A DNA stretch of 64,000 bases from Vulcanimicrobiota bacterium (lineage in GTDB: Bacteria; Vulcanimicrobiota; Vulcanimicrobiia; Vulcanimicrobiales; Vulcanimicrobiaceae): positions 128,001 through 192,000 of the forward strand of contig CAWGBN010000009.1 in the NCBI GenBank assembly GCA_963820825.1. Reading direction: 5' to 3'. The notes beneath the pieces are model-generated. The model did no database searches and was not told the origin of the DNA. It saw only the letters and a list, made by a program, of their open reading frames with translations. Shown here in pieces: positions 1,478-21,837 of the stretch. A program made the position numbers and the translations under genes. The number at the start of each line of letters is the position of its first letter. Within the stretch, counting starts at the first letter, position 1.

Positions 1478-2143
1478 ATGAGTGAACTCACGCGGCACGC
1501 TTCCCCTGTGCAAGGCCCGCAAGGCCTCGCGTGGGATGGTGCGACGATGTGGTTGACGAGCGCCGCGAATGGCCGCTTGTATGCGATTGATCCGAAGACG
1601 TGGAGCATCCAACGCGAGTTCGTTCCGCCGTCCGAGTCATTGGGCATCACTTATACCGGTTCGGATTTTCGGCTGATCCTGGCGCCGGCGATCGACGAAA
1701 CGGATCTGGAGCGCGATCACCGCTACGTCTATACATTTTCGCCCGACGCGGGATTTGCGGAGTGTTTCGTATGTCCGAATAACTCCGGATCATTTCTAGC
1801 CTACGCAAACGGCACGCTGTATCTCTCACAAGCCTGGGATAAGAAAATCATCGAACTCGACAAACGCGGCGTCGCGGTACGCGAAGTGCAACTGGAGCGC
1901 CGGCCGGTGGGCATGACGATCGTCGATGGTGCGTTTTGCCTCGTGACCGTCGACGAAGAGTGGGGCGACGGACGCTTCGATCGTCTTGGCATCGACGATG
2001 ACACATCATCGATAAAAGCGCTTCGCTCGCTTCCATTCAAACCGCGCAGCGTTGCATTTGACGGCGAGCACTTCTGGACCGCCGATCGCAACAACCACGC
2101 GATCGTGTCGTTTCCGTTAGTAGACTTCGCGCCGAGGGCGTGA
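1478..2143 (+). CDS. Beta-propeller protein (glutaminyl cyclase/YncE-like)
   Basis: Repeated blades PQGLAWDGATMW, SLGITYTG, PVGMTIVDG, PRSVAFDGEHFW. Confidence 0.7.
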   Translation: MSELTRHASPVQGPQGLAWDGATMWLTSAANGRLYAIDPKTWSIQREFVPPSESLGITYTGSDFRLILAPAIDETDLERDHRYVYTFSPDAGFAECFVCPNNSGSFLAYANGTLYLSQAWDKKIIELDKRGVAVREVQLERRPVGMTIVDGAFCLVTVDEEWGDGRFDRLGIDDDTSSIKALRSLPFKPRSVAFDGEHFWTADRNNHAIVSFPLVDFAPRA

Positions 2144-2243
2144 AAAAAGACGTTAAGGCAAGGCTTCGCTTTCCACTCCCACGATCGGCAATCGGGCAGA
2201 GGGGGCAGAATAGCGCTCGATATCCCCTATCCCAGGCGAACAA

Positions 2244-2331
2244 AGGAGAGGGTGGGATTCGAACCCACGGAGCGCTCATCACGCTCAGCGGTTTTCAAGA
2301 CCGCCGCATTCAACCGCTCTGCCACCTCTCC
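2244..2331 (-). tRNA. tRNA-Ser(UGA), class II; CCA not encoded
   Basis: Acceptor stem GGAGAGG/CCTCTCC, anticodon arm GCGGT-CTTGAAA-ACCGC, long variable arm, T-loop GGTTCGAATCC. Confidence 0.97.
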
Positions 2332-2402
2332 GCGACCCACCAAATGCCCTACTTACGGGTACTGCTGGCCGACGACCATGCTCACGGAGCGGCGGTCGCA
2401 CG

Positions 2403-2424
2403 CCATTTGCCTCACCATTTGCCT
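2403..2424 (+). repeat. Tandem 10-bp direct repeat, 12-bp period (arm-site-like)
   Basis: CCATTTGCCT-CA-CCATTTGCCT. Confidence 0.6.
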
Positions 2425-2574
2425 ACGCGCTTTTAGTCCCTGTAGTTCGCGCCGTCAGATTATTATTAGCCGTATTTTTGACGGCTTAACGGGACGCTGG
2501 TATACGCGTCCCGCATTACCCGCCCTATCCCCGCTTCGAGGCTAAACCTCGCAGCAGCCTCGCAGTTTAGCGCG

Positions 2575-5364
2575 CTATTTCGATTCGTGTCGCTCGAGCG
2601 CGAGTGCTAGCGCACCCTCCGTTGCAAGCGCAGCACCCTCGGCAGTCAGTCGCGCGAGTTCGTCGGGCGCGAGCCCCTCTCGAAGGAGTGCGGTGAGGCG
2701 CTCATACGTCGTTATCTCGGTAAATTCACGCCTGAAGCCGAGTTGCCGGAACGCGGAAGCGGCGTAGCCCTCCAAGATTGAGGCTCGCGCGAGCTCGCCG
2801 CGCAACGCGTAGACCAGGGCGAGGTGCTCCACAACTTGCGCGACCTTCGCATCATCCGGTTCGCGTCTGGCATGCGGTCCTATTACTTCGTAGGCAGCTT
2901 CGATAACGCCAGGAAAATCATCCGCTGCGACGAGATAACCCGCGAGATTAACAAGCGCAGAGCGGACCAGCGCCGTCTCTCGACCCCGCCGAGCTTGAGG
3001 TAGGATTTCGCGGACAAGCGCAATCGCTTGCTCTGTCTGCCCTTTCTCGTGTTCGATCTCAGCAAGGTTCAGAACCGCGACGACTTCGTTGTGCGTATTT
3101 CCGAGCGAGCGGTGACGCTGTCGTAGCTGCTCCCAGATGCGCACGGCCGTATCGGTGTCGCCGTTCGCATCGCACAACTGGGCTTTCGTAAAAAAGAATA
3201 GAAGGCGGAGATACGCGGAGGCGTTCGGGATTGATTCAGCCTCAACAAGCGCTTTTTCAGCATCGCCCCGCGTACCAAAGGCTAAACTGATAAAAGCATA
3301 CTTTTGGAGCGCGTCTGCGAGTGTCGGTCCGTCACCGCTGGCCCGCGCGTATGCAACCGCCCGCGTTGCAAGCTCTAGCGCCCGCTCCGAGCGATTCGCA
3401 TGTGCGAGCATGTCGGCCAGCGGAGTCGAGAGCCGAGCGAGAAGAAGCGATTCACGCGTCGGAAGAGCCGCTATGAACGTCTCATCTCGCGTTATGCCCT
3501 CGTTGCGGAGTCCAAGCGGTTCCCAAGCCATCCCGATTTCTGCAAGAAGCCAGCCGCCTGCGGGGACGTCGGGTTTCGTCAGCGCCCAATCGAGCGCCCC
3601 TCGAACGTTATCCAACTCGGTTGCCAAAGCCTCGTTAAACTCGGTCCTTCGAGCGGTCCGTTCCCATTGAACCCGCAGTTCTGCGAAGCGGACCCGCTGA
3701 TAGTACAGGTGGCGGTCGGCGAGTAGCTCGCGTTCACCCGCGTCCGTGAGTTTCTCCGAAGCGTAAATGCGAGTTGACTCAAGAAACCGATAACGTACCG
3801 AGTCGACTGCTGGTTCGGCAAGAACGAGCGACTTATCAACGAGCGACGAGAGCACGTCGAACACGTCGATTTCATCTAAGCCTTCGCTGCTGCCGACCGC
3901 AACGGCTCCCTCCAGCGTGAATCCGTTTACGAAGGTTCCCAACCGCCGGAACAAGACGCGCTCGCGTTCGTCGAGCAAATCGTGACTCCAATCGATCAGC
4001 GCACGCAGCGTCTGTTGGCGCGGAAGGACGTCGCGACTGCCGCCGGTAAGCACACGGAAACGCTCATCGAGACGTTCCCGGAGTTGGCGCGGGCTGAGAA
4101 TCCTAACACGCGATGCTGCGAGTTCAATCGCAAGCGGGATGCCGTCAAGCCGCCGGCAGATGTCCGCCACGACCGGTGCGTTTTCGTCAACCAACGTAAA
4201 TCGCTTGTCGACGGCCGCTGCACGATCGACGAAAAGTGCGATCGCCGCGGACCGAGTCGCATCCGCTGCCAAAAGATGACCTGCTATATCCTCGGGCGGG
4301 AATTCAAGGGACGGCATGCGGTACGTCTCCTCACCATCAATCCCAAGTCCTTGACGACTCGATGCCAGGACCTTGACATTCGGACAACCATGTAGGATAG
4401 CCGAGATCGCTCGCGAGGCAGGTTCGATCAGATGCTCGCAGTTGTCGAACACGAGCAGCGCACGCTTCCCCTTGAGCGCGCGAACTAGGTTCTCCACCGG
4501 ATCGCCGTCGGGCGCGAGCGTGAGTCCGAGCGCCTGCGCGACGGTAGATGGGACGTAGTCGCCGCTGGCGAGCGGCGCGAGTTCGATCAGCCAGACACCG
4601 TCAGCGGAACCGTCGAGCAAATTCGCCGCGACTTGCAGCGCTGTGCGCGTCTTGCCGACACCTGCCGACCCTACCAGTGTGACGAGTCGATGCTGCTCGA
4701 TGAGTGCCATAATTTCGGCGATCTCCGCGTCGCGCCCAACAAATGACTTCAACTGCAGCGGCAAGTTGTTCGGGAATAGGTCCACCGAACGCAGCGGCGG
4801 GAAGTCTGCCGCGAGATCGGGCGAGACTAACTGGTAGACTTGTTCGGGGCGAGCTAGATCGCGCAGCCGATGTTCACCCAGATCGCGCAAGCTTGCCCGA
4901 GGTGGGAGTGCGCCTTGCACCAGATCGGTCGTGACACCCGACACGAGCACCTGACCGCCATGCCCGATCGTCAGCAGCCGCGCGGTGCGGTTGAGCGCAG
5001 GTCCGAAGTAGTCGCCCTCGCGCTCGTCGGCCGTGCCGGTATGAACGGCCGCACGCACGCGCAATCCATCGATCCCCGAGAAATCCTCTGCATCAAGAGC
5101 GCGGTGCGCGTCGAGTATCGCCACTACGGCGTCTTGCGGGCGCGCGAACGCAGTGCAGAATGCATCGCCGATGGTCTTAAAAACGTAGCCATCGTGCTGG
5201 GCGATCGCCTTTTTCATCAGCGCGTCGTGTCGACGAACGGCGTCTTGCATCGCTTCGCGGTCGCGGTCCCAGCGTTGCGTGCTGCCTTCGATATCGGAAA
5301 ACAGAAACGTGACCGTGCCGGTAGGCCGGGGGGCCCACGGCCCGGATTCCACCTGCGTTGCCAT
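2575..5364 (-). CDS. Class III nucleotide cyclase + NB-ARC (STAND) ATPase + TPR protein
   Basis: TFLFSDIEGST and FKTIGDAF (cyclase), Walker A GSAGVGKT, Walker B LLVFDNCEH, LDGIPLAIELAA, helical C-terminus; ATG 5364 chosen as likely start (ORF open to 5595). Confidence 0.9.
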   Translation of the reverse strand: MATQVESGPWAPRPTGTVTFLFSDIEGSTQRWDRDREAMQDAVRRHDALMKKAIAQHDGYVFKTIGDAFCTAFARPQDAVVAILDAHRALDAEDFSGIDGLRVRAAVHTGTADEREGDYFGPALNRTARLLTIGHGGQVLVSGVTTDLVQGALPPRASLRDLGEHRLRDLARPEQVYQLVSPDLAADFPPLRSVDLFPNNLPLQLKSFVGRDAEIAEIMALIEQHRLVTLVGSAGVGKTRTALQVAANLLDGSADGVWLIELAPLASGDYVPSTVAQALGLTLAPDGDPVENLVRALKGKRALLVFDNCEHLIEPASRAISAILHGCPNVKVLASSRQGLGIDGEETYRMPSLEFPPEDIAGHLLAADATRSAAIALFVDRAAAVDKRFTLVDENAPVVADICRRLDGIPLAIELAASRVRILSPRQLRERLDERFRVLTGGSRDVLPRQQTLRALIDWSHDLLDERERVLFRRLGTFVNGFTLEGAVAVGSSEGLDEIDVFDVLSSLVDKSLVLAEPAVDSVRYRFLESTRIYASEKLTDAGERELLADRHLYYQRVRFAELRVQWERTARRTEFNEALATELDNVRGALDWALTKPDVPAGGWLLAEIGMAWEPLGLRNEGITRDETFIAALPTRESLLLARLSTPLADMLAHANRSERALELATRAVAYARASGDGPTLADALQKYAFISLAFGTRGDAEKALVEAESIPNASAYLRLLFFFTKAQLCDANGDTDTAVRIWEQLRQRHRSLGNTHNEVVAVLNLAEIEHEKGQTEQAIALVREILPQARRGRETALVRSALVNLAGYLVAADDFPGVIEAAYEVIGPHARREPDDAKVAQVVEHLALVYALRGELARASILEGYAASAFRQLGFRREFTEITTYERLTALLREGLAPDELARLTAEGAALATEGALALALERHESK

Positions 5365-5765
5365 GGGCCGACGTTTCGTGCTAGGGGTGTTCGCCTCCGC
5401 CGAGCGCCCTTTACACCGGCCGGACGGTTCCAAAACCTTGCTGTTCGCTAAGATGTCGTACCGACGTTCGTCGTGCGCCGTATCCGACCAATCCATCAAG
5501 CCGCGGCAGCTCCCGTTACGGAAGCAATCCATCGTGGAAGCCTCGGCGAGCAGAGTCGGCAACGTAGCAAAATGGGTGGCCCGGAAAGTGAGCACGCTTC
5601 ATCAGATTGTCGAAGTTGGACCCGATAGCGAAGCGAAAGCGTCCCTAACCGAGCCGCCGTTGCGAGACGACAGAGCCCTTGAATAAGACTAGCCCTGGCC
5701 ATGCGGATTTTTTACTCTTAAGCAACATCTGCAGAGTCGTAAGAAGCGTGTGAGAAGGCCGTCCA

Positions 5766-5788
5766 TCTCACTGATTTTCTCACCGATT
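5766..5788 (+). repeat. Tandem 11-bp imperfect direct repeat, 12-bp period (arm-site-like)
   Basis: TCTCACTGATT-T-TCTCACCGATT; resembles CTCACCATTT within the 2403-2424 repeat. Confidence 0.5.
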
Positions 5789-5878
5789 AGGACACGATAA
5801 GGCTGGATTAGCTCGGATAAGCCTGCTAGTCGTGCTCAAATGGAACTTGCGAAGACTTATTGAGGTTAGCTGTAAGCA

Positions 5879-5917
5879 TTTCAAGACCGCCGCATTCAAC
5901 CGCTCTGCCACCTCTCC
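5879..5917 (-). repeat. 5' half of tRNA-Ser(UGA), att-like scar, copy 2
   Basis: 39/39 identical to 2293-2331; identity ends exactly after the anticodon loop CTTGAAA. Confidence 0.93.
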
Positions 5918-5935
5918 ACGTCTCCGCTAGCGCTT

Positions 5936-5941
5936 ATTCTA
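5936..5941 (-). promoter_or_regulatory. Candidate -10 box (TAGAAT) upstream of the tRNA 5'-half
   Basis: TAGAAT 18 nt upstream of the G1 equivalent at 5917; no clear -35. Confidence 0.45.
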
Positions 5942-6210
5942 TAAGGATTTTGCGCGACAGCGAGCCACCCTTCGGACATGCCAATCTGCTTGTGGTTGCA
6001 GTGTGATTGCAGTTGGTCGGCGCCACACCTGGCGAACGGGTCATTTCTCAGCAACAGCCCGGGGTGCCTGGGCCCCCCGCAGCGCATCGGTAGCCGCCGC
6101 GACGGCTCTCTCACGACCGCCCTCGACGGCGTGGAGCCCTGCCACGGCAGCCGAGCGCGCACGAAAAACTGCTAGAGCACGCGCTCCGTCGCTTGTAACA
6201 AGCGCGTGCG

Positions 6211-6687
6211 TTACTTCATGTTGTGCGCAAGGTTCGCGCGCAAACTCCCACCGACGCCACCGATGAAGTCGTCGATCAACCAGCCTTGCGCCGTCTTTGT
6301 GACGACCACGGTCACGCGACCGCTCCCCGTCGTTCTCGCGTAGTGGATCGTTACAGGAACCTTCGCGCGGTTGCCGCTGATGCCGGCGGCACCGACGTTC
6401 ACCGACGACGCTGGAATCTGCGCGTCCTCGAACGGCTGGGCGTCGAGCACTTCGGCCTTGTTTTTCTGCTCGAAGGGACCGATCTGGCTCACTAAGCTGT
6501 AGAGCGACGACGTGAGGTACGGCTTCGCCCCGCTGAGATGGTCCAGCCAGCTCTGCGGATACTTTACCGACAAATCCCAGTTGTAGAAGGCGCGAACGAC
6601 CGCTTCAGGAGTGGTCGCCGCGGCCACGGGTGACGCGCAGGGCACGAGAAATGCAAGACCCGCGAGAAGCACAATACGGCGTAGCAT
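6211..6687 (-). CDS. Secreted DUF3828/YbjP-like protein
   Basis: Signal peptide from MLRRIVLL; PEAVVRAFYNW, LDAQPFEDAQ, GWLIDD motifs. Confidence 0.75.
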   Translation of the reverse strand: MLRRIVLLAGLAFLVPCASPVAAATTPEAVVRAFYNWDLSVKYPQSWLDHLSGAKPYLTSSLYSLVSQIGPFEQKNKAEVLDAQPFEDAQIPASSVNVGAAGISGNRAKVPVTIHYARTTGSGRVTVVVTKTAQGWLIDDFIGGVGGSLRANLAHNMK

Positions 6688-6775
6688 ACGCTGAACGCTT
6701 CGACGCGGGCACTCGCTCGACCCGCGTGCGAATTGCGCCGCATGGAGCGACGCGCCGCGCGTCGTAAAGGCGGCG

Positions 6776-9700
6776 GTGCGCTTTTCGCTCGACATCGCGC
6801 GTGCTTCCTTCGATTCGACGACGTTCTCGCGCGGAATGGACTACGCGCGCAGCGGTCGAGTCGTGCGGCTCGACGTTGCCGCCGGAGACGATTGCATCGC
6901 GGCGTCAGTGCGCGGAACGTCGGCGATTCCCTACGAAGTTGCGATCGATTGGCGCGAGGGCGAGCGCCGACTACGCAGCGTCTGCGATTGCCCCATCGGG
7001 CGCAACTGCAAGCATGGCGCCGCGGCCGCAATCCTCGCCGCCGAAGGCGGCATGCGCGACGCCGCCGACGGGGCCGTCGATAGCTGGCTGCAAGCGATCA
7101 CGACGCGGCGCTTCGAAGGTACCGTGCCGCGTCGCGAGCACGTGCTCTACGTGCTCGACGTTCGCGAATCGTACTACGTTCCACGCGTCGCCGTGACTGC
7201 GCGTATCGTAACGCTGCTAAAACACGGCGAACGCTCGATGGGCCGCGCGATTGATTTATCCAACCTCGCGCAGGGCGCTGGACGTTATGCGACCCCGATC
7301 GATCGCACCATCGGAAGGCTCGCGAGCGTGTGCGTGTCAACCGGCCTCGGCACGCTCAACCCGAAATTGTTTGCGACGCTGCTCGATTTGCTGCTCGCAA
7401 CCGGCCGCGTGCACTGGCACTCGACGAAGCATCCGCCGCTGCGGCGCGCAGACGTGAGCGAAGCTAAGTTCATTTGGCACCTCGATCCGGCCGACGGACG
7501 GCAACGGCCGGGAATCGAAGGCCGCAAGGAGGCGCGCTTGCTGCCGAGCGATCCGCTCTGGTATGCAGATCCGGAGGATAACACCGCCGGAACCATCGAT
7601 CTGGGCATCGCCGGAGAGATGGCGAGCGCGCTCGCGCTCGCACCTTCACTCAACGCAGCGCAAGCGCGGCGCGCGCATACGATGTGGCATCGCATTCCGA
7701 TCGCCCATGGCATTCCGCCGCCCAAGTCGGACACGCGGCTACGCGTCGTCGAACGCGATCCCGTCGTGCGCTTGGTGCTGCGCGGTTTTTCAGCAACTGC
7801 GGAGCTCACGTTCGCGTACGGAGATACGATCGTGTACCCCGACGACGTTACGTTCGAGTTTCAGGAGACGAGCGAACAAGGGGTCGCGATTGCGTGGCCG
7901 CGGCGGTTCGCGTTCGAAGCGGTCGCGAGAGCGACCTTGGCCGAGTACAGTTTGCAACCAGTCGCGTGGCCGCGCGGTCAGTTCTCAGCTACGGAACGAT
8001 CGTGGGTACGATTTCTCGACACCGCCGTTCCTGTTTTGCGCGATCGCGGCTGGCAGATCGAAATCGATTCGACGTTTCCGTACGAAGTCGTGCACATCGA
8101 CGACGCGGCGTGGGACGCGGAGATCGTCGAGAGTGCGAACCGCTGGTTCGAGCTCGACATCGGCATCGATCTCGGCGAGCAGCGCATCTCGCTCTTACCG
8201 GTCGTCGTCGATGCGCTGCAAACGCTCGGCGTGCACTCGGCCGAAGAACTCGCGGCCGAGCTGAGCGGGGAGCGCGCGCGCACGCTCTACGGGCGATTAC
8301 CCAACGGCGCGTTCGCTGCGCTACCACCCGAGCGTATCGAGCGGATCGTTTCGACCTTGGTCGAGCTATTCGACACGCCCTTGACAAAGGAAGGCCGGCT
8401 CGAACTGACGCCGGCGCACGTCGGATCGATCGACGGGCTCGCGGCGGCAGTGCAGCTGCAATGGTCGCCGGCGACGCGACTGTTGCGCGCCGCATTAAAC
8501 GAACTGGTCAGCGCGGAGAACGAGCCGATTGTCCTGCCGAGCACGTTTAAGGGTGAGCTGCGAGCGTATCAAGCTCGCGGCGTGGCGTGGCTGCAACTGC
8601 TGCGGCGCAGCGGCTTCGGCGGCGTGCTCGCCGACGACATGGGTCTCGGCAAAACGGTACAGTTTCTGGCCCATCTGGCGATCGAAAAGGCGCACGGGCG
8701 CTTGTGCGCACCGGTGCTGATCGTCGCGCCGACCAGCGTGCTGCCGAACTGGCGCGCCGAGATCGCGCGTTTTGTGCCGCACTTGCGCGTCGTCTCGCTC
8801 TCCGGGAATGACCGTGCCGAGCGTTTCGACCGCATCGAAGACAACGACGTTGCCTTGACGAGCTATGCGCTGCTCCACCGCGATGCCGATCGGCTGACCG
8901 AGCGTGAGTGGCAGATGGTCGTGCTCGACGAGACGCAGTTCGTGAAGAATCCGCGGTCGAAGGGAGCGCAGGCCGCGGCGCACTTACGCGCGGCTCAACG
9001 CCTCGCGCTCACCGGCACGCCGATCGAGAACCATCTCGACGAGCTGTGGTCGATCTTCTCATTCGCGGTACCCGGTTTGCTGGGCGACCGAACGCAGTTT
9101 GCGCGGCTCTTTCGCACGCCGATCGAAAAACGCGGCGATACGCAGCGCCGCGCGCTCTTGGCGGCGCGACTGCGACCGTTCTTAATGCGGCGCACCAAGG
9201 AAGACGTCGCGCTCGACCTGCCCGAGAAGACCGAAATCGTCACGCGGGTCGAGCTTGACGGGGCGCAGCGCGATCTCTACGAAACGATTCGCCTCGCGAT
9301 GCACGAGCGCGTGCGCGCGGAGATGCAACGCCGTGGCCTGGCACGCAGCCGGATCGTCGTGCTCGACGCACTACTCAAGCTGCGGCAAGTCTGCTGCGAC
9401 CCGCGGCTCGTCAAGCTTCCGGCCGCGCGCAACGTTTTCGACTCGAGCAAGCTCGAGACGCTCCTCGAGATGCTGCCCGAGCTGATCGACGAAGGCCGGC
9501 GCGTGTTGCTGTTCTCGCAGTTCACGTCGATGCTGGATCTGATAAAACCGGAGCTCGCCGCGCGCGCCATCGACTACGTGGAAATTCGCGGCGAAACGAA
9601 GAATCGCGAAACGCCGGTGCGACGCTTTCAAAGCCGCGAGGTGCCGCTCTTCTTGATCAGCCTCAAAGCGGGCGGCACCGGATTGAACCTAACCGCCGCC

Positions 9701-9955
9701 GACACGGTCATCCATTACGATCCGTGGTGGAATCCGGCCGTCGAGCGTCAGGCAACCGATCGCGCCCATCGGATCGGCCAGCAGTGCCCGGTCTTCGTAT
9801 ATAAGCTCATCACCATCGGCACCGTCGAAGAACGAATTCTGGAGTTGCAGCAGCGTAAAGGCGCGCTCGCCGCGGGCATCTTCGACGATGCCGCCGCGAC
9901 TTCGCAGATGTTAGACGAGACGGAGATCGAGCGCCTATTGGCGCCGTCCCTCTAA
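6776..9955 (+). CDS. SWIM zinc finger + SNF2-family helicase
   Basis: CDCP...CKH SWIM motif; LADDMGLGKT, DETQ, LTGTPIEN, SLKAGGTGLNL, QATDRAHRIGQ. Confidence 0.95.
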   Translation: MRFSLDIARASFDSTTFSRGMDYARSGRVVRLDVAAGDDCIAASVRGTSAIPYEVAIDWREGERRLRSVCDCPIGRNCKHGAAAAILAAEGGMRDAADGAVDSWLQAITTRRFEGTVPRREHVLYVLDVRESYYVPRVAVTARIVTLLKHGERSMGRAIDLSNLAQGAGRYATPIDRTIGRLASVCVSTGLGTLNPKLFATLLDLLLATGRVHWHSTKHPPLRRADVSEAKFIWHLDPADGRQRPGIEGRKEARLLPSDPLWYADPEDNTAGTIDLGIAGEMASALALAPSLNAAQARRAHTMWHRIPIAHGIPPPKSDTRLRVVERDPVVRLVLRGFSATAELTFAYGDTIVYPDDVTFEFQETSEQGVAIAWPRRFAFEAVARATLAEYSLQPVAWPRGQFSATERSWVRFLDTAVPVLRDRGWQIEIDSTFPYEVVHIDDAAWDAEIVESANRWFELDIGIDLGEQRISLLPVVVDALQTLGVHSAEELAAELSGERARTLYGRLPNGAFAALPPERIERIVSTLVELFDTPLTKEGRLELTPAHVGSIDGLAAAVQLQWSPATRLLRAALNELVSAENEPIVLPSTFKGELRAYQARGVAWLQLLRRSGFGGVLADDMGLGKTVQFLAHLAIEKAHGRLCAPVLIVAPTSVLPNWRAEIARFVPHLRVVSLSGNDRAERFDRIEDNDVALTSYALLHRDADRLTEREWQMVVLDETQFVKNPRSKGAQAAAHLRAAQRLALTGTPIENHLDELWSIFSFAVPGLLGDRTQFARLFRTPIEKRGDTQRRALLAARLRPFLMRRTKEDVALDLPEKTEIVTRVELDGAQRDLYETIRLAMHERVRAEMQRRGLARSRIVVLDALLKLRQVCCDPRLVKLPAARNVFDSSKLETLLEMLPELIDEGRRVLLFSQFTSMLDLIKPELAARAIDYVEIRGETKNRETPVRRFQSREVPLFLISLKAGGTGLNLTAADTVIHYDPWWNPAVERQATDRAHRIGQQCPVFVYKLITIGTVEERILELQQRKGALAAGIFDDAAATSQMLDETEIERLLAPSL

Positions 9956-10077
9956 TCGTTCGCCGTCAGGCCTTACATACGGACTTCGATTCCCACCTTC
10001 GCAAGGCGACAGGGCGGCGATCCGAGTTTCGTGCGTAAATCGCATTAGCGGAGATGTATCGGTATGGCATTAGTGAA

Positions 10078-10117
10078 TTTTTAAGACCGACGCATTCAAC
10101 CGCTCTGCCACCTCTCC
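10078..10117 (-). repeat. 5' half of tRNA-Ser, degenerate copy 3
   Basis: 38/40 identical to 2292-2331 (mismatches at 10082 and 10090); shares flanking ACGT with copy 2. Confidence 0.9.
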
Positions 10118-10127
10118 ACGTATTTGG

Positions 10128-10610
10128 TCACGAGCTCCAGGCCGACGCCACGCCCGTGAAGACCCAACTGCTCTGCGTTTTCTCCAGCGTAACCGTCATG
10201 CTACCTTTGTAGGCAACCTTCTTGCCGTTCGGGGCGTCGGTGAACGTGACCGGATAGATTAAATATGCGTAGTTTCCCTGCACTAACGTAAAGAGGGGTC
10301 TCCCGACCGAAAGAGTCCCCAGGGTTGCGTGAATAGCCTCGTTATTCGACTGATACCCTTTCATCCAGTCGGCGCACGTTTGCCACGCATAGGGCGGGAA
10401 ACCATCGACGATGGACGCGCGCGGCGCACACGCAGCAGCAACCGCCTTAAAGTCGCCCTTGTTGATGTCGGTAACCAACTTTTTGACAATGGAAGTCAAG
10501 TCCGACGTCCCAGACGCCAACACAGGGCTGGCCGACAGGATGGCGACTCCACAACTGGCGGCAATAATTAGGTCGCGAATACGTTTTGCTACGCAGTTCA
10601 TGGCTTTCAT
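10128..10610 (-). CDS. Secreted SnoaL/NTF2-like protein
   Basis: Signal peptide; DINKGD, SIVDGFPPYAW, terminal beta strands ending ...WVFTG. Confidence 0.65.
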   Translation of the reverse strand: MKAMNCVAKRIRDLIIAASCGVAILSASPVLASGTSDLTSIVKKLVTDINKGDFKAVAAACAPRASIVDGFPPYAWQTCADWMKGYQSNNEAIHATLGTLSVGRPLFTLVQGNYAYLIYPVTFTDAPNGKKVAYKGSMTVTLEKTQSSWVFTGVASAWSS

Positions 10611-10662
10611 CTCTCCACACTAGTGCGGTTTTTCGGGCCATAGACCCTTTCGACGACGGCCT

Positions 10663-12633
10663 TCACTGAGCGAGTACGTCGCCAACGGCGCGATAGGCCT
10701 GATCGATTGCTTGGTCAGTGTACGCTGCCGCGGCCGCGTCGGAGTTTGCAATGGCGATGCGGCCAAACCGCCGGCGCGCGGTCTCGCACGGTGTAACCCC
10801 GCCGTTGAAGAACGAGTCGGGGTCCCAGAGCGGATTATATTCGTAGGCGTATCCGTGCGCCCATCGGTTGACCGTTATCGCGGCGATGTCGCGGTCGCTG
10901 CGGAATCCTCCGGCACCGAGTACGCGCTGGAGCTGGTCGCGAATGCTGCGCTCGAACGTTTCGAACGACTCGGTCAGGAGCTCCGCACGACCGGCCCGGT
11001 GCTGATCGCGTTCCGATAGTCCCGGATAGCATGGCGTGCGCTCGAGACGCAGCAGAATCGGTTCGTCGGGCGAGTTGGGCGACCGGTACGATCCGATCTC
11101 TACCGGATTGTCGAGACGGATCGAGTTGTGGAACATCGCGGGCGTTGAAACCGCCGAAACGCCTAGCTCCTTGAAGACGCGCCAGTTGCGAACCGCAACC
11201 ACGGTGTACATCAGCGGAACCTTCGCGCCGTAACGCAGTGCCGTCTTCTGCTCGTCCGGTAGCTCCGGGACGATGTAGGGGATCATCATGTTCCACGACG
11301 CCATTACGACGTGTCTCGAGGTGATCGTATACACCTTACCTGCCCTCGCATACCAGGTCTGCACGCGAGCTGCGGTCTCGAGATCGCCCACATGCCGCAC
11401 GCGCACGACCGTGCTGCTCAGGCGAATGCGCACGACAGATCCTGGATCGTCGAGCCGCCGGTAATCGGCGCGCGCGGTCACGATATCCTGAGGCGTCGAG
11501 CCGGAAAGCACGCCGGGAATCATTCTGCGAACGAGCATCCGCGCGATCGATGCATTGCCGTCGGGAAAGTGAAAGTCGTAGGGCGGCTGATTGGGAATTG
11601 CACTGCCTTTTGCGGTAAAGCCCATGCGCGGATAGGCTCCCGGAGAGAGATGCATTCCCGCAAATCCGGGAAAGCCGAGTCCCCAGCAATCGAGCGCGCT
11701 CACCGCGTCGATGCCGGTTCCGAACAAGCCCCACGTTCGCGTCTTATAAAAAGGAACGAGTTCGGGCGTCACCGCGATGACGTCGCGCAAGAACGTTTCG
11801 TAGCTCATCCGCGACAGCCGATCTTTCTTGGCATCGTCGGTGAGGCCGGGCATGTAGTCAACGGCGGCAGTTTCGACGCGAACGAGATCCTTCTGCGCGG
11901 TCGGCGACAGCGGCGTCCGGACAGCAAAGGTTTCCCAAGACTTGCCGTTGGGCGACTCATCGCCGTAGCGTCCGGGATATCCCGTAACGAGCGCATCGGT
12001 TCCAAACGTTTCCCGATCGAAGAACACCGCCTCGCCCAGTCCCTTATAGTATTGCCACCGGTCGTAGTTTTCGGCGAAAGCCGGCGGATCGATGCCGAGC
12101 TCGTCGAGGAGACCGCGCGCGACCCTGCTGTACGGAAACGGCGATTCGATCGCGTACGTGCCGCCGTTGGCGAGCAACGTGCGACCGTCGACGTGGAACT
12201 CATTGCGTTTTGCGTGTCCGCCGAAGTCGTCGTGGTTGTCGAGAATTAAGATTCGAGCCGACGGCTCGTGCTGCAGGTAGAAGTGCGCCGCTGCAAGACC
12301 GCTCAATCCGGCTCCGACGATCACGAGATCGTACGTTTCGCCGGTCTCGTGCGCCGGCGCCGAATGATTCCAGAAGTCTCCGTCGCGAAGCTCGTGCGCG
12401 GTTGCAAACGATCCCGGATAATCGCCGCGCATTCCGGCCAGCTCGGGCGGATAGTAACCGGGGGCATTCTGTGCCTCGGATGCGGCGGCGCTCGCCGGAC
12501 ATCCAAAGAGGCTTCCCGTAACGACCGCACCGATACCAATGGCGATACCGTCGAGAAAATCCCGCCGCGGTATGTCGGCGAACATGCCGAGTTCGGCGTC
12601 CCGCCGCCGGCCGGCAGGATTTGGATCGGACAT
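10663..12633 (-). CDS. Tat-exported FAD oxidoreductase, spermidine dehydrogenase (SpdH)-like
   Basis: RRDFLDG Tat motif; YYPP...GMRG, GAGLSG, DNHDDFGGHAKRNEF, VNRWAHGYAY, AIANSDA. Confidence 0.85.
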   Translation of the reverse strand: MSDPNPAGRRRDAELGMFADIPRRDFLDGIAIGIGAVVTGSLFGCPASAAASEAQNAPGYYPPELAGMRGDYPGSFATAHELRDGDFWNHSAPAHETGETYDLVIVGAGLSGLAAAHFYLQHEPSARILILDNHDDFGGHAKRNEFHVDGRTLLANGGTYAIESPFPYSRVARGLLDELGIDPPAFAENYDRWQYYKGLGEAVFFDRETFGTDALVTGYPGRYGDESPNGKSWETFAVRTPLSPTAQKDLVRVETAAVDYMPGLTDDAKKDRLSRMSYETFLRDVIAVTPELVPFYKTRTWGLFGTGIDAVSALDCWGLGFPGFAGMHLSPGAYPRMGFTAKGSAIPNQPPYDFHFPDGNASIARMLVRRMIPGVLSGSTPQDIVTARADYRRLDDPGSVVRIRLSSTVVRVRHVGDLETAARVQTWYARAGKVYTITSRHVVMASWNMMIPYIVPELPDEQKTALRYGAKVPLMYTVVAVRNWRVFKELGVSAVSTPAMFHNSIRLDNPVEIGSYRSPNSPDEPILLRLERTPCYPGLSERDQHRAGRAELLTESFETFERSIRDQLQRVLGAGGFRSDRDIAAITVNRWAHGYAYEYNPLWDPDSFFNGGVTPCETARRRFGRIAIANSDAAAAAYTDQAIDQAYRAVGDVLAQ

Positions 12634-15600
12634 CAGATTTTGAACTGGGCGGTAACGAAGACGTTCGTCGGTACTTTCGTCCCGGTAAAACCGTTGACCA
12701 ACGGATTGTACTGATAGTTATACGGATAGCGGAGTTGCACCGGTGCCGACACTAGCGCAGCGAAGTTCCCGACCGGCGCGATCGAATAGGCGAGCGTATC
12801 GAAGATGCACACATTCGAATCGTCCCACGGGTAGCCGTGCTGGAAGCACCGATCGACCAATCCCGTCGCAGTAACGGAGACCGTTACCGCCGGCGAAATG
12901 TCGTAGCCGGCCGAAAGATTGACGGTCAGGCGCCCCGGCTCTCTGAAACTCGTGACCGAATCGAAGGCGCCGGTGTACAGGTCGGGGGTGAACAGATAGG
13001 CGACGGTGTTCGGCGGCGGCGTACAGGCCTGCGGATTGACCGGGCCGCGGGTCCCGCTCCCGTGAACCGGCAGGCAGTCTTGCGGAACGTATCCGGGCCA
13101 GCTCAGTGGCGACCCGTACGTCTTCCCGTAGCCGTACGCGACCGTCGGCGTAACGTGAAGTCTGTCGTGTTTGTAGCCAAGGACCAGATTGAACACATTC
13201 GGGGTCACCTGACCGGTCGCGCCGGTAAATGGGGCGGCGAGCTCCGCGTACGTCGGATACCACGCATTCGCGTCGAGCAGGGGCTGCGCGCTCGCCGAAT
13301 AGTACGGATTGAGGACCCTCGTCTTTGGCGCCTCATTGCTGGGAAGCGTGGGATGCGCATTGGCCGATCCGTACGCGCCGCAAAGCGCACGATTTCCCGC
13401 AATGCAGCTGTGTGTATACGAGTTATACTGCTGGATGAAGGAGTTGAGCGTGTCGATAAAGTTGACGCCGGGCGTGATGTCGTCGTACCGGCTCCGGCTG
13501 TTCGTGTAGGTGTACGAAAGTTCGAACGAGAGGCCGTTGTTGGAGAAATCTCCTTTGCTAAGCGCGAGTTCGACACCGTACGCCTTGATCAATCCTCCGT
13601 TGACGCCGGTCGTGTCGCCGTTGTAGCCGATCGGTACGAACTCGATCTCGTCGAAATCTTCCCGATAGAAGGGCGTGATACGGAACGCAACGTCGGTGCC
13701 GTGTACGTGCTTCTCCAACGACAGGTCGTAGCTGTTCGCGACTTGGGGACTTACCGCGTGGTACGGTGTATTGAAACCGAAGGGCAAGAACTGCGAGAGA
13801 AAGTCGGGGAGATCTTCCTGTCGCGCGTAGACCTCCAAGTTGGTCCCGGGACTGCTGGCGTATCGGCCGTAGGAGAGTCGCATCACCGTGTCCGGATTGA
13901 ACGTGTACGTCAGCCCGAGGCGCGGTTCGAGTTCGCTGTAGCTGACGTATCCGGGCACGACGTTCTGCAGGTTCGGCGACGAAAACCCGGTCGGGCAGGC
14001 CGGCCAGGCTCCCGTCACCGGGTTTATCTGCGAAGGGTTCTTGTATGTGAAGGCGCCTCCGGGAGCCGTGCAATACTCGCGGTTAAATGCCGCAAACCAG
14101 AAGTTGCGCGCCGCCGTCGTCGTCGTCGAGGGCAGTGAAAAGTCGAACTGGTCCAAGCGCAGTCCGATATTTGCGACCAAACGATCGTTGGGGCGATATT
14201 GATCGGCGATCGAGTAGCCGTAGTCCGTTTCGGTGACGTTGTTGGTGTTGCCGGTGAGTCCGGTCTCGGTCATCGCCCAGTGCGCGCCGTGGAGGGCCGC
14301 AGGGCTCCTCGGCGGCAACGGCACGTTCGAGCACCGACCCGAAGCGTTGAGCGTACAGCCCGCAGGCCCCAGCTGCGGCCTGCTGCCGAATTGCGTCACG
14401 ACGTTGTACGAGCATCCAAGGTTGCTGGAGAAAGCGGAGCCGTAGTAACCAGAGTTGCACGGGGAGCCGGAATCGTAGCAGCTATCGTATGCGCCCGTAA
14501 CGTAATTATAGCAGTTCCCTCTCGCGTCGATAAAATTGTCGGAGATGAAGCCCGCCATGGCCTCGTTGTCGAGCAAGCTATTCTCCGTGCGCGACACGCT
14601 CGCCGTCGCCGTCACCAGATGTTGGGACGAGAGCTGATCCTCGTAGCGTCCGGTAAGGCCGTACGTGTGCGTGAAGGTGATGTACTCGGCGGGAGTCGGC
14701 CCGTACGGGAGATTTCCGCTATCGGCGCCGGTGTAACCGAGATACGAGTAGTTGGCATATCCGTAGATCCGAACGAACGACCGGTCGTCGATGGTGTGCT
14801 GATACTGCACCTTGTCGAGTGATACTTCGTTGTCGCTATTGTCGCGATAGGCTGGTGGCAGCGGTGCTTGCCAGGCGCGATTGGTCGGCGTATTGGGCAT
14901 GAAGTACTTCGAGAGGAGGGTGGACGGCGTGGCCGGCGCCATCAACGGCTGGTTATAGACGTAATCGTCGGGAAAGACCGGATAGTAGCCGAGCTCTTTC
15001 GTCAAGAGCGCCGCGCCCCCAAGATCGTTGACCGAAGTCGGATTGTATGCCGGCAGATACCCCGACATCGCGAGTAACTGGACGTCGTCTCGATACGGGC
15101 CGTTGCGGTGTGGAATTGCAAAGTGAAGATTCACGATGCCTTCGCGATCGAAGACCGTCACTTGCTGGGGCGTGATACCGCTGGTGAAATATGCCTTTCC
15201 GCTCCCGTCGAAGACCGTTTCGTTGTTTCCGGTGGGCAGTACGATCGGCGTCCAGAAACGCGCGACATCCGAAGCGCCGTCGTATTGATCGACGAAGCGG
15301 TTGTCTTGGCCGAAGCCCATGACGCCCAGGTAATAGGAGAAGGTTCGATCGGGCGTCGCGCCGCCCGCTTCGAACGCAGCCTTGTGATAAAACGCCGGTG
15401 CGCCCACGCTGAACTCAGCCGTCGCGTACCCCGGAATCGTTCCGGTCTTGATCACTTGATTGATGTATCCCGACGTGCCGGCTGCGTCGGCCGAGGCCGG
15501 CGACCCGCCGGCATAGAGTTGTAATTGCCGTTGACCCAGCACCGAGAAGAACGACCCGGTGATCGGGACACCATCCATCTCTTCGGAAACGTCGCCGGAG

Positions 15601-16175
15601 CCGCGCACCAGGTACATTTGGGCCCACCCCTGTTGACCTTGCTGATAGTCGACGCCCGGTAGCGCGGCGAGCGCGCCGTACGCCTGATTCAACGACGATG
15701 CGCCGCCGATCGTCGATGCCGCCGCGCTCTGAGCCGCATTAACGGAATAGACGTCTTGCGTGTCACCCGGGCGGACGAGGCTTCCTGCACTTCGGCTCAG
15801 GGTGCGAACGATCGTCTTGAGCGTTGCGTTCATTTCGACGTTTACGACGGCCACGTTGTCGGCCGAGACGATCACGCCGTTAACCGACGCAGGATCGTAG
15901 CCGCTGCGCTTCGCCGTCAGGACGTACGTGTCCGGACTCAGCGAAATAAAGAGGAAGTCGCCGCGCACGTCGGTTGTTGCCGTCGCCGCTCCCGACGGCG
16001 CCGTAACGCTGACCGTAACGCCGGAAAGCGGCGCTTTTGTCGCGCGGTCGTCCACGTGGCCGCGAATGGTCCCGGTCGTGCCCGCCGTGGCGGAAGAAAA
16101 GGAGGCGGTCCAAAAGAGAACGAGGACGAGTATGCCGGGGATAATCCGCTGCTCATAACGCCCGTGCACGCGCAC
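12633..16175 (-). CDS. TonB-dependent receptor-like outer-membrane protein
   Basis: Signal peptide, N-terminal carboxypeptidase-regulatory-like domain, plug-like ALPGV...VRG...MDGVPI, PRLGLTY, LSYTYT, C-terminal FVTAQFKI; stop overlaps the next start. Confidence 0.85.
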   Translation of the reverse strand: MRVHGRYEQRIIPGILVLVLFWTASFSSATAGTTGTIRGHVDDRATKAPLSGVTVSVTAPSGAATATTDVRGDFLFISLSPDTYVLTAKRSGYDPASVNGVIVSADNVAVVNVEMNATLKTIVRTLSRSAGSLVRPGDTQDVYSVNAAQSAAASTIGGASSLNQAYGALAALPGVDYQQGQQGWAQMYLVRGSGDVSEEMDGVPITGSFFSVLGQRQLQLYAGGSPASADAAGTSGYINQVIKTGTIPGYATAEFSVGAPAFYHKAAFEAGGATPDRTFSYYLGVMGFGQDNRFVDQYDGASDVARFWTPIVLPTGNNETVFDGSGKAYFTSGITPQQVTVFDREGIVNLHFAIPHRNGPYRDDVQLLAMSGYLPAYNPTSVNDLGGAALLTKELGYYPVFPDDYVYNQPLMAPATPSTLLSKYFMPNTPTNRAWQAPLPPAYRDNSDNEVSLDKVQYQHTIDDRSFVRIYGYANYSYLGYTGADSGNLPYGPTPAEYITFTHTYGLTGRYEDQLSSQHLVTATASVSRTENSLLDNEAMAGFISDNFIDARGNCYNYVTGAYDSCYDSGSPCNSGYYGSAFSSNLGCSYNVVTQFGSRPQLGPAGCTLNASGRCSNVPLPPRSPAALHGAHWAMTETGLTGNTNNVTETDYGYSIADQYRPNDRLVANIGLRLDQFDFSLPSTTTTAARNFWFAAFNREYCTAPGGAFTYKNPSQINPVTGAWPACPTGFSSPNLQNVVPGYVSYSELEPRLGLTYTFNPDTVMRLSYGRYASSPGTNLEVYARQEDLPDFLSQFLPFGFNTPYHAVSPQVANSYDLSLEKHVHGTDVAFRITPFYREDFDEIEFVPIGYNGDTTGVNGGLIKAYGVELALSKGDFSNNGLSFELSYTYTNSRSRYDDITPGVNFIDTLNSFIQQYNSYTHSCIAGNRALCGAYGSANAHPTLPSNEAPKTRVLNPYYSASAQPLLDANAWYPTYAELAAPFTGATGQVTPNVFNLVLGYKHDRLHVTPTVAYGYGKTYGSPLSWPGYVPQDCLPVHGSGTRGPVNPQACTPPPNTVAYLFTPDLYTGAFDSVTSFREPGRLTVNLSAGYDISPAVTVSVTATGLVDRCFQHGYPWDDSNVCIFDTLAYSIAPVGNFAALVSAPVQLRYPYNYQYNPLVNGFTGTKVPTNVFVTAQFKI

Positions 16176-16309
16176 CCTACCTTCGCAGTTACTCGTGGGT
16201 TAGCCGGGTAATACTTGCGGCTTGCTTGGCGTTCCTCGCCACCATGATCGCGACAAAGCATGGCGAAGGGGGGCGCGGCGCTCGGCGGTCCGCGCCGCCA
16301 GACGGCAGT

Positions 16310-19388: not shown

Positions 19389-21837
19389 ATGCGAAGATCA
19401 ACACGCGTGATGGCGTCAACGCTCGGACTGACGCTAACGCTCACCGCATGCGGAGGACAGAGTACTTCGATCCCTTGGGCCGGCACGAATAGTAACGGCC
19501 CAACCACCGAGTCGGCGGCCCGCACGGCAAAACCAGACCGGCCTCTCATCTCGGTTCCACAACTCACCGGTGACCTCGCCTATACCGACGCCGGCCGCCG
19601 CGGTAACAACGCGCCGGTTCGCGTCCAGCTGGTGCTGCGATACCGCGATCAGGCGGAACTCGATCACCTGGTTGCAAGCATTAGCGACCCGCGCTCCGGC
19701 GTAACGCGCCGCGCGCTTACACCGAAGCAGTTCAAGGAACGTTATGCGCCGACGGCGCTGCAAGAGGAACGCGTGGTGCGTGCCCTCGAGCGAGCCGGCT
19801 TCAGAATCGTCAAACGCTTTCCGAATCGCACGATCGTCGACGCGATTGCGCGTACCTCGGTCGTCGAGCGTTTTTTTTCGACGGAGATTCACACCGTACG
19901 TCAAGGTAAGTACGGCGAACGCTACACGAACGTCAAGCCGGCAACGGTCCCGCACGAAATCGCCGCGCTCGTTCGCGACGTTTCGCTCGACAACGTCGTC
20001 GTCGTCCGAACCGTCGCCGAGCAAGACGGCGTCGAGAGTCAGCGAACCGCGCCGCAGTTTCCGGTAGACGGCATGGGCCGGCCTCGCATTCCCCTCGCAC
20101 CGAGTGGAATCCGACCCGGCGATTCCAACGGCAACTTAGTCAACGGTACCTTTGAGAGCGGCTCGTTGACCCCGGGTTGGATCAACGAGAGCACGCGCAG
20201 CAGCTACGCGCAAGTTACCACGAGACAAGCCCATTCGGGCAGCTATTCGGCCTTCACGGGCTCGCTGCAGCCGCCGGAGATCAACGGCTGGGGCGCGATT
20301 GCACAGCTGGTAAAAGTGCCGGCAAACGGCGTGCTCTCGTTCTGGGTCTATCAGGGCTCCAACGAATCCCAGAAAGGCTACGGCACGAAATACGCGTGGC
20401 AGGCCGGTTACCTGCTCAACCAAAGCGGAACGATTCTCACGACGTTCTTTAAGACCGTCAATACCACCAACGGTTGGGTGAACTATCAGGTAAACCTCAG
20501 CGCGTACGCCGGTCAGACCGACTACATCTATTTCGGCTGTTACGGCGACGGCTATAGCCAAACGTACGTCTATCAATACGTCGACGACGTCGCTTGGGCT
20601 GGGGCGACACCCTCTCCATCGCCGACGCCGACGGCTACTCCCACGCCGCGGCCGACGCCGACGCCAACACCGACGCCGACGGCAAGCCCAACGCCGACGC
20701 CGCATCCTACTCCGACTCCGACGGCGACGCCGACCGCAACGCCGACGGCAAGCCCGACACCGACGGCAAGTCCGACGTCGACGCCGAGCAGCGGCTGCAA
20801 CGGTGCGGCTCCGGATAACGGACCGCTAACCAACTCCTCGGGAACGCTGGCAACCGGTGTGGCCAAGCCATTTGACTTCCCCGTTCAGCACGGATGCAAC
20901 GGAGCCGGTTACACCGCCGCGATCGCCATCGACGATCCGGTCAACAAGAGCTACCTCACCACGTATCTCTCGGCAGCCGGCGTAACCCAAACCGGTACCG
21001 TAACGAACGAAACCGTCGACGGCGGGGGAAGCGGTGACGAACCCGAGACCGACCTCGACGTGCAGACCATCGCCGGATTGGCACCGGGAGCGAATATCAT
21101 CGTCTACGACATGGGCTCGCTCACCGACCAAGCCATCGAGGACACCTATAACCAGGCGCTCAGCGACGCCAAGGCGACTGCGGTGAACTCATCGTTCGGC
21201 GGTTGTGAATCGAGCGACGTCTCCTTCGCCGATGCGACGAACTCCATCGCGCAACAGGGCGCCGCGGAGGGCGTTGAGTTCTCGGCTTCGAGCGGCGACT
21301 CGGGCAGCAACGAGTGCGGCGGAAAAGGAGTCCAGTGCACCCGCGGGCGGTCCGTACTTCTCGTCGATCGGCGGCATCGACTTCACCGACAACAGCAACG
21401 GTCAGCTCCTGACGGTTACCATGGGCAACGTCAGCGGCGACTCGGGCGGCGGCGGCGTCTCGACCGTCTTCGCCCTGCCTAGTTACCAGAGCGGGATCAC
21501 CGGAATGATTACGACGGGTCGCAATCAACCCGACTTCTCGCTGCCGTTCTATCCGGTCGCCGTCTACACGGGCGGCAGCTGGGGTGAATACTTGGGAACT
21601 TCTTGGTCGTCGCCCGCTTCGGTGGCGCTGATCCTGGAAGCCAACGAACTCCACTCCACCAAGCTGGGATGGATCGACCCAACGATCTACAGCCTATTTG
21701 CCTCTACCGGATACAGCACGTACTACACGCCCTGTACTTCCGGCAACAACGGAGCGTACTCGTGTAACGCTTCGCAATATAATCAGGCTGCAGGAATCGG
21801 AGCTCCGAAGGGCTGGGCACTCGCCAACGCTCTCTGA
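19389..21837 (+). CDS. S53 (sedolisin/kumamolisin) lipoprotein with +1 frameshift at ~21332
   Basis: AAGGAGG RBS, LTAC lipobox, prodomain, CBM-like insert, PT linker, ETDLD, SSGDSG; GTSWSSP in second frame; removing one C at 21332-21333 restores GVSAPAGGP. Confidence 0.85.
20611..20790 (+). repeat. Pro-Thr linker-coding tandem repeats
   Basis: (CCGACG)n-like, encodes PSPSPTPTATPTP... Confidence 0.85.

Follow-up and report, generated by a model that had tools for sequence, protein, structure and literature searches.

The window analyzed here, the whole stretch of 64,000 nucleotides (nt) taken from a Vulcanimicrobiota bacterium, carries close to its start a serine tRNA gene with partial copies of the same gene stacked upstream of it. 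The source genome, labeled G000, is a metagenome-type assembly of 2.98 Mb that is 85% complete (labels beginning with G, C, and L denote genomes, contigs, and loci). ARAGORN made a single tRNA call in the window, the intact tRNA-Ser(UGA) gene (anticodon TGA) at 2244 to 2331 on the reverse strand, and Ser(TGA) accounts for 1 of 47 tRNA calls in the assembly. Upstream of this gene and in the same orientation are two displaced copies of its 5' half, both of which end at the anticodon loop. The nearer copy (5879 to 5917, reverse strand) is identical to tRNA nt 1 to 39 (39/39). The older copy (10079 to 10117, reverse strand) matches at 37 of 39 positions, or 38 of 40 when nt 40, which also matches, is counted; its two changes are G to T at nt 28 and G to A at nt 36, the latter within the anticodon loop, where CTTGAAA becomes CTTAAAA. 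The two halves gave BLAST E values of 8e-16 and 1e-11 against the whole G000 genome, and no further copy of the 39-mer was found there. A dispersed repeat was therefore rejected, and the pair of cooriented upstream halves reported in an initial annotation of this DNA is real.

The DNA between these copies forms two units, each of which ends in the remains of an integration module. Unit 1 (2332 to 5878) has a right end, the attR arm (2332 to 2486, reverse strand), whose 155 nt are homologous to the right ends of intact IntC-type integrative and mobilizable elements (IMEs) of related genomes (80% over 131 nt to G002:C3) and span an integrase tail and three arm-type sites. The sites (2417 to 2426, 2405 to 2415, and 2376 to 2385; together 2376 to 2426, reverse strand), to which an integrase would presumably have bound, are each mutated relative to the GTGAGCAAAT motif of intact elements. 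The stump itself (2423 to 2485, reverse strand) preserves ~20 codons from the 3' end of an IntC-lineage integrase gene (...LTARTTGTKSA-stop compared with ...LMARTKGTQSA-stop in intact genes); its protein score of 35 is below the cutoff of 38, and the homology rests on the DNA alignment. The left end (5728 to 5878, reverse strand; arm sites at 5764 to 5784 and an inverted site at 5748 to 5757) is of the A type and aligns at 70 to 85% over ~113 nt with the left ends of many units in congeners. Because its left end is of A type and its right end of C type, unit 1 is, judging from these alignments, a chimera of two element types.

Unit 2 spans 5918 to 10078. Its right end (5918 to 6134, reverse strand), which aligns with ends in G067, G095, and G022, contains one half of an inverted repeat (5918 to 5933), tandem TGCAAyCA arm sites (5992 to 6013), and a stump consisting of the final 30 codons of an integrase gene of a second lineage (6041 to 6133, reverse strand); it scores 99 when compared with the tail of the G097 integrase and ends at the C terminus of that protein. 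The second lineage is ~30% identical to the first, and the two units thus carry stumps and arm sites of two unrelated integrase lineages. The left end of unit 2 is truncated to 53 nt (10026 to 10078, reverse strand, by alignment); it retains an inverted-repeat half at 10041 to 10057 and has no arm sites. The att cores of both units are present. A loop mismatch between cores should hinder strand exchange by tyrosine recombinases, and such hindrance is therefore expected at the changed loop of the distal core of unit 2. No match to the tyrosine integrase family PF00589 was detected in the window (five occur elsewhere in G000), in agreement with the reported absence of an integrase from the 64 kb, and a genome profile search for serine recombinases (PF07508) found none in G000, so a serine-recombinase reading was dropped. 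None of the integrases in G000 is more than 37% identical to those of the Ser lineages (the best are 27 to 37% identical), and neither the relaxase nor the Xis of the parent elements has a match in the genome.

The cargo of unit 1 is a gene for an adenylate/guanylate cyclase-STAND NTPase-TPR protein (2575 to 5364, reverse strand; frame open to 5595). Unit 2 carries an SNF2 helicase gene (6776 to 9955, forward strand), whose product has an N-terminal CxC..CxH motif that we take to be SWIM-like, and a gene for a small protein with a signal-peptide-like start (6211 to 6687, reverse strand, from the open reading frame list). Pfam confirmed the cyclase-STAND-TPR and SNF2 labels of the initial annotation but assigned the small protein, previously labeled DUF3828, to no family at E ≤ 0.001 or E ≤ 0.01. 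The SNF2 block is 92.6 to 93.7% identical in four congeners, with different flanks each time. Beyond the distal half lies a DUF4440 gene (10128 to 10610, reverse strand, Pfam), the probable cargo of a third, eroded unit, followed by a probable fourth junction (10609 to 10660, reverse strand) worn down to ~45 nt, with ~35 nt of a right end and the first 6 to 9 nt of the tRNA (nhmmer E = 2e-4 in the genome; alignment with an intact junction in G080). The DUF4440 start codons are immediately preceded by the GGAGAG of this junction (10609 to 10620), which might act as a ribosome-binding site, or this may be coincidence. Next comes a block encoding a flavin adenine dinucleotide (FAD) oxidoreductase and a TonB-dependent receptor (10663 to 16189, reverse strand, Pfam), which shares 89% identity with G080 and G086 across 5.5 kb; the G080 copy is followed, 157 nt beyond its end, by an intact 5' half. 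Decay of the repeat in the window thus grows with distance from the tRNA, from no mismatches to two mismatches to an eroded trace. The probable fourth junction, together with the integrase stumps and arm sites in which the units end, adds to what had been noted before.

The same arrangement recurs across what is probably the genus "Ca. Cybelea." Allowing up to 3 mismatches, the 39-mer was found in 83 of 91 congeneric genomes, at least two copies were present in 48 of the 91, and one genome held 16; a reversed control pattern gave no match in the 91 genomes. Eighty stretches chosen for holding repeats were condensed into 60 regions from 49 genomes, including G000, with 98 halves and 39 intact genes; no claim is built on the unpublished genomes G048 and G059. 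At tRNA nt 33 to 39, 94 to 98 of the 98 halves are identical to the tRNA, compared with 24 at nt 40 and 9 at nt 41. This drop places the boundary at the 3' edge of the anticodon loop, and it upholds the earlier proposal that a new 5' half is brought in by crossover in the 7-nt loop and that insertions stack upstream. In the window the crossover would lie at 2299 to 2293 (reverse strand), and tRNA nt 1 to 39 (2331 to 2293) would have been supplied by the last element to arrive. Halves lay upstream of the intact gene in 47 cases and downstream in none, a biased count, as the fetched DNA reaches only 1.5 to 3.4 kb downstream. Linkage of half alleles to the upstream rather than the downstream flank was weak (AMI of 0.067 versus 0.035 at nt 16; other sites were uninformative). 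In G000, 19.5 kb separate the tRNA from the next conserved gene block; in four congeners the corresponding distances are 31, 45, 111, and ~177 kb. The longest array on one contig has 8 junctions, and G015 has 17 halves over three contigs. Two of its stretches (G015:C1:1-4312 and G015:C9:113132-117436) begin with one common unit (98.3%) and diverge toward two tRNA copies; they are likely strain variants of one array. Two halves on G063:C2 (at 1683557 and 1736997) are separated from the intact tRNA (at 856173) by more than 800 kb, lie beside relaxase and VirB4 genes, and represent a rearrangement or a secondary site. In two other families, 8 genomes were examined over the 14 to 18 kb that precede tRNA-Ser(TGA), and neither halves nor an integrase were found.

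Intact elements that could have given rise to the window units are present in the congeners. Units were defined as the DNA between consecutive cores, and this yielded 78 units of 1 to 65 kb from the relatives and G000, 29 of them tRNA proximal and 49 distal. A full tyrosine integrase is encoded by 19 of 29 proximal but only 3 of 49 distal units (Fisher P = 3e-8, which is overstated, as kin are not independent). The proximal integrase genes are cooriented with the tRNA; the integrases that the initial annotation had suggested seeking beside 5' halves are thus found in relatives, in genes ending ~90 to 140 nt upstream of the restored tRNA. Among the 19 integrase-bearing proximal units, 14 also encode an 800-amino-acid (aa) MobA/VirD2-type relaxase (MOBP, PF03432) and an Xis-like HTH_17 protein. 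By gene content these are IMEs, mostly of 7 to 12 kb and with surface-protein cargo, because they have their own integrase and relaxase and VirB4 matches fall outside the 7- to 12-kb elements. Their order is left arm, cargo, MOBP relaxase, Xis-like HTH_17, tyrosine integrase, three arm sites, and tRNA nt 1 to 39. An 85-kb element in G029 has the same site and polarity and encodes VirB4, VirB6, VirB8, VirB10, VirD4, SLT (lytic transglycosylase), relaxase, and NikA families; it is an integrative and conjugative element (ICE) and a plausible helper for the IMEs. The IME relaxase is 60% identical to that of the G029 element, a value outside the operational limit of <40% given in the cited part of PMC7563491, and the IMEs look like streamlined relatives of this ICE family. 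The relaxase occurs in 52 of the 91 genomes and the VirB4 family in 13, which are the source of candidate helper ICEs; G000 has neither. Upstream of the relaxase is a conserved noncoding block of ~310 nt with a hairpin (e.g., L015:13339-13614), a candidate origin of transfer (oriT) and promoter, part of which recurs upstream of the Xis-integrase genes.

The ends of the intact elements have arm motifs at fixed offsets, with direct repeats at -95, -84, and -55 before the tRNA and at +95 and +106 after the half, where an inverted copy follows at +122. The motif changes with the integrase clade, and the ends resemble those of lambda-type elements, in which such arms would bind the integrase. An inverted repeat of 15 to 25 bp flanks the core, and in integrase-bearing units cognate ends pair at 10.7 of 15 positions versus 8.5 when permuted (0/2000 permutations). 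This repeat is more likely a DNA site than an RNA hairpin because it reaches -21, past the likely start site. The integrases have an arm-binding-type architecture with Phage_int_SAM_3. Most of those at tRNA-Ser fall into a single clade, of 23 rows, that is well supported (quick tree; trees were built by a quick method and FastTree, without a clade test), and two further lineages, 30 to 37% identical to the main clade, use the same site with the same polarity. Integrase relatives from other phyla are mostly convergent with the tRNA; where a fragment was seen, they displace nt 32/33 to the end, but several of these relatives are of the 5' type. The 5' type was also seen in 4 of 8 tRNA-adjacent homologs of a sister family and in an integrase at tRNA-Arg(CCT) in G000. 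Because 5'-type homologs recur in these three settings, the 5' polarity is, as far as these comparisons indicate, a recurrent flip of an anticodon-loop site. At L107:3551-11321 a member of the tRNA-Ser integrase clade is found at tRNA-Ser(GCT) with a 5' fragment, a switch of target inside the clade.

The tRNA-Arg(CCT) integrase is an intact 415-aa protein encoded upstream of its tRNA (G000:C5:230474-231900, L002) with TGCAACCA arm repeats, and this locus is a second 5'-type site in the genome. A degenerate 5' half of tRNA-Arg(CCT) lies at G000:C2:349872-349911, and a second full tRNA-Arg(CCT) gene is on C7. Fragments of the 3' type were observed downstream of genes on C2 (tRNA-Asn and tRNA-Glu), C6 and C4 (tRNA-SeC and tRNA-Ala), and C5 (tRNA-Val); G000 builds ordinary 3'-type arrays at other tRNAs too.

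We conclude that the window units are very probably decayed remnants, similar to cis-mobilizable elements (CIMEs), of integrative elements whose successive insertions took place at the anticodon loop and whose integrases were then lost by deletion, because the 5' halves are cooriented and each unit has an integrase stump and damaged arms. By analogy with lambda-type recombination, the attachment site (attP) of a circular element would carry tRNA nt 1 to 39, strand exchange across the 7-nt loop would restore the tRNA with the half of the element, and the old half, together with all earlier elements, would be pushed upstream. The right end of the element would also have to supply the tRNA promoter because the element parts the tRNA from its former upstream DNA. 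Comparison among units shows that older ones have shed the integrase, relaxase, and oriT-like block through deletions with scattered breakpoints, which often joined ends of different elements, and that cargo has been reshuffled. Both arms were found in 18 of the 22 units with an integrase but in 9 of the 56 without one (one motif family only, which misses the second lineage), and homology of right ends to intact elements breaks anywhere between -30 and -500. Integrase tails precede 25 of 94 halves at a score of 38, where the false rate is 11% (34/300 controls). The oriT-like block was found in 0 of 56 integrase-less units and nowhere in the G000 genome, and no whole unit is common to different species among the 78. 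With mutated right arm sites in unit 1 and, in unit 2, no left arm sites and a changed loop, both units would now be immobile alone, their one remaining route being transfer in cis with a newly incoming element; no intact element adjoins them in G000. IMEs would borrow the type IV secretion system (T4SS) of related ICEs. The window itself is in all likelihood ordinary, a set of dead remnants rather than a cassette system. Of the two fates that had been proposed for the integrase-less units, decay is thus favored by the stumps and arms, and cassette-like mobilization in trans is not supported.

Several observations weigh against accretion followed by decay. No public contig or read spanning the stretch was found; three DNA sequencing runs (shares of 0.05 to 0.11, with no RNA run listed) contained no spanning sequence and did not serve as evidence. 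The choice of regions is biased toward repeat-bearing DNA. The initial annotation had suggested comparing relatives for empty sites, and no native, element-free upstream region was identified at the 39 intact genes; seven genomes with a single match in the fetched region (G022, G018, G006, G024, G028, G085, and G104) were considered as empty sites and rejected, as their upstream DNA is of element type, and a supposed native promoter was rejected because the sequence belongs to the second integrase lineage, as its right end. Nor was excision or a circle seen. The promoter step is weakened by a sigma-70 scan of 2100 to 10300 that returned no sites; a -10-like hexamer is present in 23 of 39 proximal ends versus 19% of controls, and the proximal end of the window fails this test. 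As G000 is 85% complete, a cognate integrase may be missing from the assembly, and the intact tRNA-Arg(CCT) integrase of this genome has the arm motif of unit 2. The left arm site is kept in 39 of 56 integrase-less units, whose two ends are slightly more cognate than expected by chance (137/2000 permutations; 24 and 43 of 1000). Finally, inverted left arms make up 18 of the 135 right ends; they come complete with arm sites, and their junction lies at the inverted repeat directly ahead of tRNA nt 1, an arrangement that simple deletion does not explain. They fall into two groups in 8 genomes (G002, G006, G014, G015, G026, G035, G094, and G109), which include the longest arrays; examples are L008:4144-4273, L010:2554-2683, L015:5440-5569, L015:9288-9417, L039:16435-16564, and L032:5944-6073, and two such ends precede intact tRNAs. 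All of them are in relatives and none is in the window. Whole-element inversion was rejected, as none of the 97 left ends is an inverted right end.

It is possible, if somewhat unlikely, that much of the cargo came by imprecise excision or by composite CIME-IME transfer and then stayed, as in the capture model for tycheposon islands, a scheme that is compatible with accretion and decay and could operate alongside them. The SNF2 block (92.6 to 93.7%) and the oxidoreductase/TonB block (89%) are far more alike between species than syntenic core genes, which are 65 to 79% identical; the ends of unit 1 are chimeric; and composite transfer is described for CIME-ICE tandems in the cited part of PMC5704250. 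However, no composite circle was seen, and the SNF2 block in G094 has no Ser half within the 40 kb fetched around it; other routes must therefore also move this block.

The inverted-arm ends raise a different scheme. A symmetric attP with two inverted left arms could plausibly have been made by fold-back at the 15- to 25-bp inverted repeat flanking the core. We consider it quite unlikely that tRNA-Ser(UGA) is, in this genus, a permanent landing pad always driven by the promoter of the newest element, with the longest arrays fed by symmetric nonautonomous units that visiting IMEs and ICEs insert in trans with their integrases, as an integron-like stack on a tRNA 5' half, and with displaced halves that may still give rise to small RNAs. 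An integron-like array, in which integrase-less cassettes would be a maintained nonautonomous family that a visiting IME or ICE excises and reinserts in trans with its own integrase, is very unlikely as well. This scheme could draw on the 40 of 49 distal units without an integrase match, the 17 halves of G015, the often intact left arms, the inverted-left-arm right ends of the 8 genomes, which give units with ~100-bp terminal inverted arms, and the G000 Arg(CCT) integrase with its unit 2-type arms. It sits poorly with the stumps and damaged arms of both window units, with the missing left arm sites and unequal loops (CTTGAAA versus CTTAAAA) of unit 2, with the absence of the oriT-like block from all 56 integrase-less units, and with the lack of any whole unit common to different species; moreover, strong pairing of a unit's own two ends is confined to integrase-bearing units (0/2000 versus 137/2000 permutations). 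Chance, duplication of a tRNA pseudogene, or misassembly deserves almost no credence: the assembly is of metagenome type and lacks a spanning public contig, but the copies differ from one another, the same end base recurs in 98 halves from 42 genomes, and conserved sequence from arms and integrase tails borders the halves.

Accretion and decay agree with what the cited portions of the literature describe for other elements, and the suggestion that this is an undescribed system was not borne out, as 5'-fragment islands, a 39-bp first-half attP, and CIME accretion are all already published. ICEs and IMEs integrate, decay to CIMEs, and accrete in tandem, the units most distant from the target being the most decayed (Guedon et al. 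2017, PMC5704250; PMC7563491; PMC3146451). The window units lack integrase, Xis, and relaxase genes apart from stumps, have stumps and arm sites homologous to intact ICE or IME elements from which they would derive by deletion, and belong to an array type whose distal units are the decayed ones (full integrase in 19/29 proximal versus 3/49 distal units). As in CIME tandems, an IME or ICE sits beside the target gene with decayed integrase-less units behind it, and the IMEs share with those of the Streptococcus salivarius type a MobP relaxase and a tyrosine integrase without a T4SS (PMC5704250, PMC7563491). In contrast, the tRNA-targeting IMEs covered there use the 3' end, whereas the 5' half is replaced here; S. 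salivarius tandems comprise 2 or 3 elements (PMC7563491), compared with up to 8 junctions per contig; and three integrase lineages share one site here, with damaged att arms in the window.

According to the cited part of the Islander survey, 159 of 3,919 islands have a 5' fragment and only 4 tandems have three or more members (Hudson et al. 2015, PMC4383910). Its anticodon-centered (A) sites likewise have the fragment upstream in the same orientation, and tandem arrays are recognized there; the window fragments lie upstream, are cooriented, and end at the anticodon loop. Islander demands an integrase in each island, which congeners have and the window does not, and the window units would therefore be filtered out. 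The T7-like cyanophages P-SSP7 and S-TIP37 carry a 39-bp first-half tRNA-Leu attP downstream of the integrase and integrate experimentally, but these are phages at tRNA-Leu with transient integration and, in the cited account, no stacked remnants (PMC8776855). In Prochlorococcus tycheposon islands, newcomers also push older elements away from the tRNA, Ser-tga being one target (bioRxiv 10.1101/2020.12.28.424599), and both these and the Dehalococcoides ssrA islands show scattered partial tRNAs, integrase fragments, and many units without an integration module (10.1101/2020.12.28.424599, PMC3146451). Tycheposons have primase/helicase or phage-packaging modules, whereas relaxase and conjugation genes are found here (10.1101/2020.12.28.424599); no such replication or packaging module (primase, helicase, terS, or MCP) was detected in the 14 proximal elements, in which the gene caller missed some open reading frames and which have integrase, Xis, relaxase, and surface-protein cargo in common. 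The Dehalococcoides islands differ in using a serine recombinase and 3' repeats (PMC3146451). Klebsiella islands upstream of the arg2 tRNA share the 5' repeat and upstream integration but cross over at the D-loop rather than the anticodon loop, and no arrays are described in the cited text (bioRxiv 10.1101/2020.11.02.365908). Integron cassettes have neither a recombinase of their own nor remnants of one and mostly hold a single open reading frame, whereas the window units both end in integrase stumps and units in general measure 1 to 65 kb. Integration on the 5' side is itself a rare but known way of building islands; a literature search covering few subscription papers found no published account of this element family or of 5'-type IME/CIME stacks.

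The hotspot, now mapped precisely, accounts for 20 to ~180 kb of variable DNA in a lineage that is uncultured and widespread, and the IME/ICE family responsible for it can be named. Integration on the 5' side would leave the host tRNA reliant on a promoter carried by the element, and from this one can predict which DNA can and which cannot be deleted during decay. The clade-specific arm motifs and the site common to three integrase lineages offer a ready set of cases on which to test the specificity of integrases and possible integration tools.

Some of the cargo and neighboring genes deserve mention in their own right. A 31-kb second-lineage element in G071 (L043-L044, G071:C7:526513-557536) carries defense-type cargo that includes a ThsB-like TIR protein, MazG-C, an hmdU kinase, and a type III restriction-like helicase. 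A unit of G002 encodes a homolog of pentameric ligand-gated ion channels (L029:12257-13174). In the window, a Pro-kumamolisin (S53-type) protease gene at 19389 to 21837 is apparently split over two frames near 21400, and this region is 75% identical in four congeners.

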